Assembly (NCBI GenBank): GCA_051294905.1
Contig: CM119372.1
Span: 24,492,001 to 24,556,000 of the forward strand
Direction of reading: 5' to 3'
Length of the DNA: 64,000 bases
Source of the DNA: Botryllus schlosseri
Lineage: Eukaryota
Made by a program: the position numbers and the translations under genes. The notes below the pieces were generated by a model. It made no database searches and was not told the DNA's origin. It saw only the letters and a list, made by a program, of their open reading frames with translations. This document shows positions 12,545 through 15,961 of this stretch, one piece after another (the stretch's first letter is position 1; every line of letters begins with the position of its first letter).

Positions 12545-13380
12545 TTATAAATCTCTATCGAACTCCATAGCTTGGATTGCTCGGTCTCCATTGGCATCCA
12601 TCTTCGTGAATTCTCGCCGTACCATCGAAGCGATGTCGTTCGCAGTGTAGTCATCCAGACTATCTAGGATTTCTGCCGTATCCAATAAAGCCATTTCGTG
12701 TCTCCTTTCTCTATCGTACTGCAGTTCAGAAGTCAATGCTCGGTGTAAATCCTAAACATAAAAATGAATCTTTAGAACATATGCAACGCATTTTAAAGTT
12801 ATGCTATTGTAGTGATGACCTGGTTAAAATGTTGGCGTAATCCTTCTGCGAACTCATTGAGGTTAAGAGACTTATCTGCATTCGTATCCATGGAGCTGAA
12901 GATCATTTTCGTTTGTCGTAAGTCGTTTCCAACGTCACCAACCTTGTCGTCTCCGTGGATCGCTATGCAAGTGTAATGTTTGCCAAGCCACCAACCAGCT
13001 TAAATTAATTATCGTATGTTTCGTTGACAACAGAAAACAGCTAATGGAATTCAAAATTCTTACAATTCCCGGTAATGATGGAAGTTCCTGTCCTGCAGGC
13101 ACCGCCTCCGCAATTGCAACAAAATAAGTTGCAGCCGTTTCCATGCCCACTTCCAGCGCCGCAACACTTCCTCTTCTTAAATAGACCCACCACCTCACAA
13201 TCCTTACAATATCTTAGATTCAAGCAAAAGTACATCTTTGTTATGAAATGATTTTATTACATGATGTATGCGGATGCGGATATGTCTATTTATTTTACCG
13301 TGTTGTCCTCTACCACAGCATACGGCTTCCGAGTAACAGATGAAGGCAAGGGCTAGAAGTAAAACAAACGCGAAATCCAT
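12545..13380 (-). CDS. Secreted Diedel-like cysteine-rich protein with two C-terminal EF-hands (about 205 aa, 4 coding exons)
   Basis: Exons 13299-13380, 13064-13212, 12820-12998, 12545-12751; GT-AG introns of 86, 65 and 68 nt. Signal peptide MDFAFVLLLALAFICYSEA; 12 Cys including CC..C..C..CCG...GCNLFCCNCGGGAC (Diedel-type CNxFxCNCxGGC); EF loops DTNADKSLNLNE and DANGDRAIQAME. Introns 2 and 3 are in phase; intron 1 is off by one base. Confidence 0.82.
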
Positions 13381-15961
13381 TCCTTGATTTCGTTTCAAAA
13401 CCTACATAAAATAAAGCGCATTAGATTCACAGAAGATGAATAAACTGTAATTTTACGTGGGTGTTTTACTAGAACCCACGACATACAGTTGAATATGTAA
13501 AATCTTGCGTGTACTTGAGACAGCAGGAGTACTTTTTGACAGTGGTTCCTAAACGTTTTTGAGCGCGACCCGAATTTGAATTTTAGTGACATCTCGCGAT
13601 TAAAGACTCACACATTGACATGAATACATTCCTAATGTTAATGTGCTGCGTTTTTACGGACATGCATACTGACATGATAAAGTACAGGCAACCAATAGTA
13701 CGCAACTACTCCTGGTCGTTTCGGCATCTTCCTATCATTCATTGAATTGCAGTCTTGTGATGTTTTGAAGTGATGAAATTTTATGAATAAACTTGAACTT
13801 GAACTTGAACTTGAACGCAGTTCTATGAATCATTATAGTTTTAAAATGCCATTGATTGAGTGAGTAGAAAAGCTTGAACATTGGGCATCATTCGAAAAGG
13901 TATTCTGCCGTAAATATATATGTTAACCGACTGTATGATATGGTAGAAGTTGAAAACAGAAATAAAATGCAATATGCACATTGCACACACAGTCCAAGGA
14001 ATTACTGACAGCCATTTGTAGAGGCAATACTTTCATTGGCAGTGCCATTCAATAAATTAACACATATTTCGGCAGTCAATTGCGGTATCATAATGATTTA
14101 TTTATCTGCGATCGGCTTGGTGTTGGTCAGTTGCGGATGGTCAACTTTCTCGCTCAGCGACCAAAATACTGTTTTTTACTTCGCTTTATCAGGTGGTTGA
14201 CTTTAAAAATGGGTCAACTTCTCACTCCGCTCCCGAAATACTTGCCGGAGCGTCACTTCGGTGCTGATGTACGACATCTCAGTCGAATTTTGCTATAAAT
14301 ATGACCAACATTCTTAAAAAAGAGGACAAAATCTCAAAAAGGAGGACATTCAGGCGTCCTCGAAGGACATTTTCAAAAACCCGAAAAAAGGAGGACAAAT
14401 CCTCCTAAAGGAGGACGTACGGTAACTAGCGTTGGGACCCCGGGAAATCCCGATCCCGGGATCCCGGGATTTGAATCAATCCCGATCCCGGGATTAATCC
14501 GAATGGAATCCCGGGATTTGTAAACAGCATCTAGCAAGGCTTACGCAGGGCCATCTCTCTTATTTTTGTAATAAAGCAGTGTCACAAACTCGGCTGATTG
14601 TCTGAAACAGTGGTATCAAACACGCGGCCCGCGTTGGCCTTTTTCATTTTCAAGTATTCGACGATATTTAACTGGACAATATCTTATTTCGGATTTGAGA
14701 ACTTGAAATTCTCTCTAAAACCACTCCATAAACCTGAATCGCTATCACATGTCAAATGCCCGCTAGCTGCGAAATTATAACGCGGCAGCTTTCACGATGA
14801 CATGATGCATTTGTCGTCTCGCATGGTGTCTAACTGTATATAACTCATTACATCGCCAAATTATGCAAAGTACATCAAAATTTTTAAAAATACATTTAAA
14901 AATATGACATTTTCATGAATATTACAATAGTTAATCACATTTGCAAAATGTGTATGGAATGCCAGTCTGCAAGGTCCGTCATATAAGGCCTACTTGGAAA
15001 TACATATTATAGCCTTCCCCTACTTGAGGGGTGGCCAACCTGCGGCCGTAGAAGGAAATTTGTGCGACCGTGGACACGCAATGCAATTAGTATCTGTTGG
15101 CGGCCGCCAACATGCAATTTGAATTTACGAATGGACTCCCGATTTATTGATAGCTTTTAATAAATCTTGACATTTTCTTCGCGTCACCCGCAATTCAATG
15201 TGACTGCATTCTTCGCTTTTAATATAGTAGGGCCCTTTGCAATTAGAGCCCCACATTACAGATTCGAACAGCAGAGGAAAATGATACGCTCCATATAGAA
15301 ATACAAACTCGGAATCCTCTCTATACTGAAAATCCTGATGGGAGGTCAAGAAATAACAGCATGCAAGAAAGTAACTAATAACAATTGGCCCATCCTAAGA
15401 TGCATCATCATCATATATATCGTGCCCTAAATTTTCGAATACATCCCGTCCATCAACTCTACCGGTGAATCTGATCACATCCATATGGGCTGAGAGAAAG
15501 GATAAACGTTTGATAGTAATCAGTGTTGGGATGACTCGAGTCAGACTCGAGTCAACTTTTTAGTATGACTTGACTTCACTCTAGTCACTTTGGAAAAATG
15601 ACTTGACTTGACTTGACTCGGAGCTTCAAAAATGTGCATTGACTAGTGACTCGGAGCAAAATTTACGAGTCAATTTCAAGTCATTTCAAGGGTGTCGATT
15701 AAATCACTGTATCTTGTGTAGGTTCGGATTGTTCGAGATACGCCGGTGTCACTTGCGAGAGCAACCAGGGATTCACTGACTCTACGTTACACTGATCCTC
15801 CATTGCTGCATCACAAATAAATTGACCGCAAACGAAACTATCAAATCTATGTTGCCGTAGTACTAGATTAATCTAATAGCAATGTGTCTCTGTTTCTTAG
15901 ACGGCTCAATGCTTGAGTTGCGCAGTGCTCACCTTTAGCAACCCTTTTGTACGATTTAAAT

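Follow-up and report, generated by a model that had tools for sequence, protein, structure and literature searches.

The 64,000-nucleotide stretch of Botryllus schlosseri DNA analyzed here (contig CM119372.1, positions 24,492,001 to 24,556,000; hereafter the window) carries on its minus strand an expressed four-exon gene, whose coding sequence (CDS) runs from 13380 to 12545. The gene was delineated by translating the reverse complement of positions 12450–13500 frame by frame, and the exons, joined in a script, give a CDS of 618 nt that encodes 205 residues followed by a stop codon. The protein begins with a hydrophobic, signal-like peptide, continues with a mature part that contains 12 cysteines, and carries two EF-hand loops, DTNADKSLNLNE and DANGDRAIQAME. 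A preliminary description of the same DNA had proposed this four-exon architecture and the length of 205 residues, and the strings that it quoted are found on the minus strand as expected: the Cys-rich stretch in exon 2, DTNADKSLNLNE in exon 3, and the tetrapeptide RERR together with DANGDRAIQAME in exon 4. The reading that we favor, and hold to be probable though far from certain, is that of an ascidian gene for a secreted-type protein, a soluble extracellular ligand or binding protein, which belongs to a lineage-restricted family expanded by tandem duplication.

Transcription and splicing were assessed in four sequencing runs (X1, X5, X6, and X8) of the 24 on record for the organism, compared over positions 12300–13600. 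Runs X5, X6, and X8, from three studies, yielded intron-less contigs of 774, 829, and 686 nt, respectively, each of which joins the four exons in frame; the runs are not recorded as RNA, and we take them to be RNA from the intron-less state of these contigs. The contigs omit exactly 85, 65, and 68 nt at 13298/13212, 13064/12998, and 12820/12751, and read depth is zero within introns 1 and 2 in all three runs. In the DNA-like run X1, the introns are covered and no joints are seen, and unspliced contigs occur in this run only. Over the window exons, the X5 contig is free of mismatches. At the first joint (13212/13298, with an ambiguity of 1), the mRNA junction of all three transcript contigs reads CAC GGA TAT (His-Gly-Tyr), which is in frame and fits the G-[YF]-C-K-D-C stretch of the homologues. 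Exon 1 ends in phase 1 with the donor G/GTAAAA, and a paralogue at locus L004 has the same exon structure. At the other end of the gene, an AATAAA signal lies 12–35 nt upstream of the transcript contig ends. The preliminary description had made its gene model depend on spliced transcripts that join the Cys-rich and EF-hand exons; this doubt is answered because the X5, X6, and X8 contigs join precisely these exons. The coding sequence is also recovered by homology, as a tblastn search with the 214-residue homologue P0005 matches all four window exons (E 1.8e-41), a match to the locus far beyond chance.

Nine coding positions vary in the other runs. Six of the variants are synonymous, which fits a gene under constraint, and three are non-synonymous, namely F3L (13372), R194G (12583), and M199T (12567). 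The X1 variant contig with R194G carries glycine, the usual residue, at position 6 of the EF-hand 2 loop. As a separate observation, contigs whose match to the window is limited to positions 12966–12998 and includes mismatches are covered far more deeply (259 and 89.5), suggesting that at least one other copy is probably more strongly expressed than that of the window.

Table 1. Features of the four-exon gene in the window; exon limits were set by the transcript contigs
Feature	Position	Strand	Description
5' untranslated region	13381..13533	-	Transcript contig starts: 13533 (X6), 13471 (X5), 13403 (X8)
Exon 1 CDS	13299..13380	-	ATG at 13380; hydrophobic signal-like peptide to ..YSEA, then V-C-C-G-R-G-Q-H
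Intron 1, 85 nt	13214..13298	-	GT..AA in the window allele; TA..AG placement equally good
Exon 2, symmetric phase 1-1	13064..13213	-	Core of the Cys-rich domain (YCKDC...KCCGAGSGHGNGCNLFCCNCGGGACRTG...)
CNLFCCNC loop	13110..13133	-	Cys-Asn, two hydrophobics, C-x-C cluster; aligns to the Diedel SD2 loop
Intron 2, 65 nt	12999..13063	-	GT..AG
Exon 3	12820..12998	-	End of the Cys domain (SGWWLGKHYTC, 12th Cys), linker, EF-hand 1
EF-hand loop 1, DTNADKSLNLNE	12853..12888	-	D1, N3, D5, E12 kept; Lys at position 6
Intron 3, 68 nt	12752..12819	-	GT..AG
Exon 4 CDS	12545..12751	-	Helical insert, EF-hand 2, conserved end EFDRDL and stop
RERR ("furin site")	12701..12712	-	In 1/13 aligned members; non-conserved
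EF-hand loop 2, DANGDRAIQAME	12563..12598	-	D1, N3, D5, E12 kept; Arg at position 6
3' untranslated region	12480..12544	-	AATAAA at 12515-12520; transcript contig ends 12480-12503

The relatives of the window protein place it in a small family. The Cys stretch of exon 2 found P0005, with 69% identity over the exon. A filter-free phmmer search with the 49-residue Cys exon against 1.84 billion representative proteins returned three proteins at E ≤ 0.001: two are 208-residue proteins of the same build, listed in a cluster look-up as "uncharacterized protein" of Styela clava, and the third, P0008 (991 residues, repetitive), was set aside as unrelated. A profile search gave nine proteins, made up of seven Styela clava clusters, P0005, and P0018, a fragment of P0005. 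The seven clusters and P0005 (207–216 residues) share the whole architecture and match the profile with E-values of 1e-67 to 1e-106. The Styela clava members are LOC120325699, LOC120325698, LOC120348299, LOC120326488, LOC120326489, LOC120326736, and LOC120327049 (P0006, P0007, P0010, and P0013–P0017), and they are 36–43% identical to the window protein. Like it, they have a signal peptide, an x-C-C start, 12 cysteines, a GCN-hydrophobic-hydrophobic-CC-x-C loop, the SGWW...C stretch, two EF-hands, and an EFDxDL end. They differ from it in belonging to another ascidian genus and to a separate clade, in having glycine at position 6 of both EF-hand loops and a shorter C-x(1-2)-C spacer, and in lacking RERR.

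The source genome (495 Mb) contains 15 exon-level matches, three in the window and 12 within about 36 kb of contig C11. The latter region (C11:22070000-22106000, loci L009–L013) holds four complete four-exon paralogues, two on each strand, and one fragment consisting of exon 2 only; by tblastn and splice modeling, the complete copies encode 202–209 residues with canonical GT–AG models. The cluster of paralogues that the preliminary description proposed to look for is thus present, with four intact copies. Throughout the family, the build is the same: a signal-like N-terminus, an x-C-C start of the mature chain, a Gly-rich domain of ~70 residues with 12 invariant cysteines, and two EF-hand loops set about 60 residues apart by a helical insert. 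Exactly 12 cysteines follow residue 20 in 12 of the 13 full-length members, and the remaining one, C11_A, has 13, with the extra cysteine in the signal region. In a maximum-likelihood tree, the seven Styela proteins form one clade and the five source-genome copies with P0005 form the other (support 99/97), a separation from which it follows that expansion took place independently in the two lineages. No paralogue is more than 58% identical to the window copy.

In these searches, the family has been seen in ascidians only. Viral and metagenomic contigs (IMG/VR and JGI) gave 137 and 209 pattern-matching stretches, none of which was confirmed by tblastn. The insect context implied by the preliminary description is replaced by an ascidian one, with Styela clava as the source of the named relatives. 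Its view that the family is essentially uncharacterized has held up, as every relative with a name is an "uncharacterized" protein of Styela clava and no describing paper was found. A full-text search, with supplements outside its scope, gave no paper for six of the Styela LOC identifiers, none on Diedel in ascidians or tunicates, and, to judge by titles and abstracts, none on a Diedel/EF-hand fusion. Titles and abstracts likewise yielded no paper on an ascidian secreted cysteine-rich EF-hand family, and there was none on Styela EF-hand proteins with a signal peptide.

The pair of EF-hands named in the preliminary description stands on the loop pattern of the window copy and on profile matches of its homologues, whereas the window exons taken singly stay below the Pfam cut-offs. 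Read directly from the sequence, both window loops (DTNADKSLNLNE and DANGDRAIQAME) have ligands at positions 1, 3, and 5, glutamate at position 12, and a hydrophobic residue at position 8. Position 6 is lysine in loop 1 and arginine in loop 2 instead of the usual glycine; the EF-hand loop pattern tolerates lysine or arginine at this position. The homologues exceed the cut-offs: P0005 reaches 33.9 bits on EF-hand_1, against a cut-off of 25.4, and matches over two stretches, while P0006 has 37.8 bits on EF-hand_5 and P0007 has 29.2 bits on EF-hand_6. Among PDB sequences, the family profile also matches CaBP1 and calmodulin (E about 5e-6), and in the ESM Atlas a whole Styela protein matched generic EF-hand clusters only, the N-terminal domain (N-domain) giving no usable match. 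An AlphaFold2 (AF2) model of P0005 has predicted local distance difference test (pLDDT) values of 63–81 over residues 111–210, where it predicts a helix-loop-helix, two extra helices, and a second helix-loop-helix. Strand residues modeled in the EF loops at 127–128 and 205–206 could be the loop–loop bridge of a paired EF lobe.

The furin-type site and the propeptide gating that the preliminary description attached to it did not survive comparison with the family. RERR is found in one of 13 aligned members, the window copy itself, and the other 12 are acidic or polar there. In the AF2 model, the site falls within the helical insert of the EF lobe. Since the tetrapeptide is unique to the window copy and lies in this insert, furin gating is not a family feature, and cleavage by furin as a common property of these proteins was ruled out. 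The C-termini (..FDRDL, ..FDKDLE/K) are unlike KDEL-type signals, which we take to argue against a retention in the endoplasmic reticulum of the MCFD2/CREC kind.

On the identity of the Cys-rich domain, our analysis departs from the preliminary description, which had assigned it to Diedel. Diedel (Drosophila CG11501; PF13164; PDB 3zzo/3zzr) and its insect-virus homologues are, like the ascidian proteins, small, secreted, and Cys-rich; their mature chains open with x-C-C, and their C-N-[IL]-F-x-C-N-C loop leads into G-x-C-x-x-G. The available portion of the structural report on Diedel (PMC3307722) describes two parts: a ferredoxin-like SD1, built from segments 29–59 and 90–117, and a conserved SD2, built from the N-terminal residues and loop 60–89, in which the strictly conserved Asn77 holds Ile78–Phe79 exposed. 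SD2 of Diedel has four disulfide bridges, of which two connect the N-terminal cysteines with the loop. The relatives named in that portion come from drosophilids, an aphid, and insect DNA viruses, whereas the hosts here are ascidians. Diedel has SD1 and 10 cysteines; the ascidian family has 12 cysteines, Gly-rich insertions, extra CC doublets, and the EF-hand pair.

Profile searches gave no sign of Diedel membership. PF13164 (gathering score 21.3 bits) has no match at E ≤ 10 on exon 2 or its open reading frame (ORF), on P0005, P0006, or P0007, or on any of 14 N-domain sequences, and on these 14 sequences no Pfam family matches at all; as a positive control, viral Diedel proteins score 63–68 bits. 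A six-frame search of the source genome with PF13164 gave a sole site, unrelated to the gene, at 18.1 bits and under the cut-off. This site (C4:12602016-12602132, L014) is an isolated CDLFGCNC string in a 61-residue frame with a stop inside the match, and it was treated as chance; it illustrates how much of the PF13164 score sits in a short motif. N-domain profiles run against PDB sequences left the Diedel chains 3zzo/3zzr unmatched at E ≤ 10, and a viral Diedel protein finds the 3zzo/3zzr chain in the same library at 1.4e-15. SD1 has no counterpart either, as about 22 residues separate the N-terminal CC from C-G-x-G, versus about 45 in the viral Diedels. Judged by sequence, the protein falls outside the Diedel family in its Pfam definition.

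Alignment of profiles gave a different picture for the SD2 half. For this comparison, a degenerate motif pattern picked out five large viral contigs, and one of their proteins, used as a query, brought in eight more Diedel proteins, including granulovirus and moth proteins. With hhalign, the 13-sequence N-domain alignment matched eight Diedel sequences with Prob 58.3, P 9.7e-5, and a score of 29.2 over 19 columns (C-N-I-F-x-C-N-C...G-x-C-x-x-G), and it matched a single viral Diedel with Prob 39.6 over 26 columns. None of 300 column shuffles reached 29.2 (mean 12.5, sd 3.0, maximum 24.6), the reversed N-domain alignment scored 13.2, and six TB domains of a fibrillin-like gene in the source genome, which served as a Cys-rich control, gave Prob 1.7 and a score of 15.0. 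A relaxed alignment extends beyond the 19-column core with posterior confidence near zero. A Diedel hidden Markov model built here and run with all HMMER filters off gave scores from -8.4 to 13.5 bits across the 13 members. The SD2 signature itself, an x-C-C mature start together with G-C-N-[ILVM]-[FVL]-C-C-x-C, is present in 13 of 13 full-length members.

These results bear on an alternative in which the N-domain is a true Diedel homologue, at least in its SD2 knot, which would make the protein an immunomodulatory cytokine of the Diedel type with a gained calcium-binding tail. In its favor are the x-C-C directly after the signal peptide in both groups, the shared order of elements (C-x(2-4)-C, about 10 residues, C-G-x-G, C-N-[ILVM]-hydrophobic-x-C-x-C, 1–6 residues, C-x-x-G), the hhalign scores above shuffles and control, and the fact that SD2 is the conserved part of Diedel according to the available portion of PMC3307722. 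These are set against the negative profile and PDB searches, the range of bit scores from the Diedel model, the missing SD1, and the difference in cysteine number. In addition, the host ranges of the two groups, as far as Diedel relatives have been named (granulovirus and moth among them), have no overlap, and the AF2 models of the Cys domain are too poor for a comparison of folds. Foldseek with the full P0005 model against the PDB gave weak calmodulin-type rows only (best E 8.2e-3) and no Diedel; this says nothing about the Cys domain because the N-domain part of the model has a pLDDT below 50. On balance, we consider true homology with Diedel unlikely. The resemblance to the SD2 half is real, to judge from the alignments, with a short loop that scores above the controls but is inconclusive, and kinship is unproven.

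A second alternative holds that the Cys domain is an orphan, its Diedel motif convergent, and that the protein is a structural or matricellular calcium-binding protein (of tunic, clot, or matrix) with a build like that of SPARC/BM-40. SPARC is laid out as a Cys-rich module followed by an EF-hand pair. SPARC/BM-40/osteonectin (PF10591) thus resembles the ascidian proteins in being secreted, with a disulfide-rich module before an EF-hand pair that binds extracellular calcium, and it differs in having a follistatin/Kazal module and a much larger size, whereas the ascidian EF-hand loops are split by an inserted helix pair. This alternative agrees with the negative outcome of every HMMER-level Diedel test and with the multi-copy, lineage-specific character of the family, which is common for matrix or secretion products. 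It also draws on near-threshold scores for SPARC_Ca_bdg: PF10591 (cut-off 22 bits) gave 20.1 bits for P0006 and 13.9 bits for P0005, with no match for P0007, and these matches are confined to the EF-hand part as well as being under the cut-off. Collagen-binding or follistatin-like features occur in none of the 14 N-domain sequences, and the hhalign signal, which stands above the shuffles and the TB control, is poorly explained by chance. We regard a matricellular protein with a convergent motif as decidedly improbable.

Another extracellular module, the TB domain, came up in the same searches and was rejected. The TB domain of LTBP1 (1ksq) is the only PDB sequence match of the N-domain profiles (E 0.023 and 0.058, over 33 residues), and it spans a CC(C)-x-G-x-G-x-G-x-x-C stretch. 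The TB (8-Cys) family PF00683 matches none of the 14 N-domain sequences, its hhalign score lies within the shuffle background, and the ascidian family has CC doublets and no CCC triplet. A PF00683 search of the source genome touches neither the gene nor its paralogues, and finds only the fibrillin-like gene on contig C4. This fibrillin/LTBP-like gene (C4:30217000-30252000, L020–L025) has at least six TB-domain exons, which score 29.8–48 bits on PF00683.

By these comparisons, the Cys module is an orphan, and the protein represents a new secreted-type architecture that couples a Cys-rich domain, possibly tied to Diedel SD2, to an EF-hand pair. For the favored ligand or binding-protein reading, a mechanism can be outlined in four steps. 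First, the protein would enter the secretory pathway by means of its putative signal peptide. Second, six predicted disulfides would lock the N-domain into a small knot, which may expose the invariant Cys-Asn and the two hydrophobic residues after it as a loop for binding; this proposal follows the same logic as the Asn77/Ile78/Phe79 arrangement of Diedel SD2 in the portion of PMC3307722 cited above. Third, the two EF-hands would pair into one lobe that probably binds calcium, and at seawater-like extracellular calcium this lobe would be constitutively loaded, so that it may serve as a calcium-stabilized scaffold or a calcium-dependent docking module rather than a sensor. Fourth, a knot with an exposed loop, attached to a loaded EF lobe, would make the protein most likely a soluble extracellular ligand or binding protein.

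Several observations weigh against this reading. Secretion, disulfide bonding, and calcium binding are all three properties that we infer from sequence, and the assignment as a ligand is a guess based on anatomy. The AF2 models are poor over the Cys domain, with a mean pLDDT of 50.7 for P0005 (modeled with eight homologues) and values below 50 over residues 12–110, and with a mean of 42.4 for the N-domain modeled alone from 14 rows. Window exon 3 alone scores 17.4–18.7 bits on the EF-hand models (E 0.002–0.006; EF-hand_1 17.4 bits, E 0.0031), below the cut-offs, and window exon 4, submitted as a single exon, has no Pfam EF-hand match at E ≤ 10. To these are added the arginine at position 6 of the second loop and the inter-EF insert, which is the most divergent of its clade in the window copy. 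Finally, intron 1 of the window allele ends in AA, not AG (minus-strand base at 13214), so that this allele could be mis-spliced in some individuals. A scripted search found no canonical GT–AG in-frame model for the window copy, versus models for four of four paralogues, and the L004 paralogue reads CACG/GTAAGA...GACAG/GGTATTGC at the same intron-1 site. Run X1 has G at minus-strand 13214 (T>C on the plus strand, depth 12.2 of 12.2), which gives a canonical GT..AG intron. That the AA allele is itself correctly spliced is hinted at by the X5 contig, which matches the window haplotype in the exons.

Some of these points could also be read as decay, in which case the window copy would be a dispersed duplicate that is turning into a pseudogene, its RNA being residual transcription. 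The AA acceptor and the missing canonical models would be expected of such a copy, as would the arginine in the second EF-hand loop, the lack of a Pfam match on exon 4, and the divergent insert. The window copy lies by itself on contig C2, apart from the C11 cluster, and, with its low identity to the paralogues, has a long end branch in its own clade (0.66), which is exceeded only by C11_C (0.79) and C11_A (1.42). All four exons are nevertheless open, and all 12 cysteines and all calcium-ligand positions are kept. Three studies provide contigs spliced in frame, including one that is identical to the window exons; another haplotype has both the AG acceptor and Gly194; and synonymous variants outnumber non-synonymous ones by six to three. 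Taken together, these data make a decaying duplicate very improbable.

Among invertebrates, ascidians are some of the closest relatives of the vertebrates, and the secreted proteins that they use in signaling and defense are poorly cataloged. The family described here is expressed, comprises several copies, and has undergone separate expansions in two ascidian lineages, and its Cys module matches no Pfam family. Should the likeness to SD2 prove structural, a cytokine module thought to be confined to insects and insect viruses would have a wider known range, and the ascidian proteins would be a natural case of this module combined with calcium binding. Should it not, the family would still represent a clean new secreted Cys-knot/EF-hand architecture.

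The surroundings of the gene are sparse, with no coding annotation recognized within about 6 kb on either side. The preliminary description had called the region rich in transposable elements, which is fair for the window as a whole, given its transposon ORFs about 34 kb from the gene. They comprise a hAT-type transposase ORF of 575 residues (Dimer_Tnp_hAT, DUF4371) at 47266–48993 on the minus strand and an adjoining retrotransposon pol at 49496–53300 on the plus strand, the latter in overlapping frames with DUF7041, RVT_1, RNase H, and integrase. Just downstream of the 3' end of the gene, two copies of a 150-nt direct repeat, perhaps a small repetitive element, lie 219 nt apart at 11932–12081 and 12151–12300 and share 95% identity. 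Further along, at about 21200–21520, the ORF listing points to a long tandem array with a 12-nt unit, which translates as (GWLV)n from one strand and as (PTNQ)n from the opposite strand.

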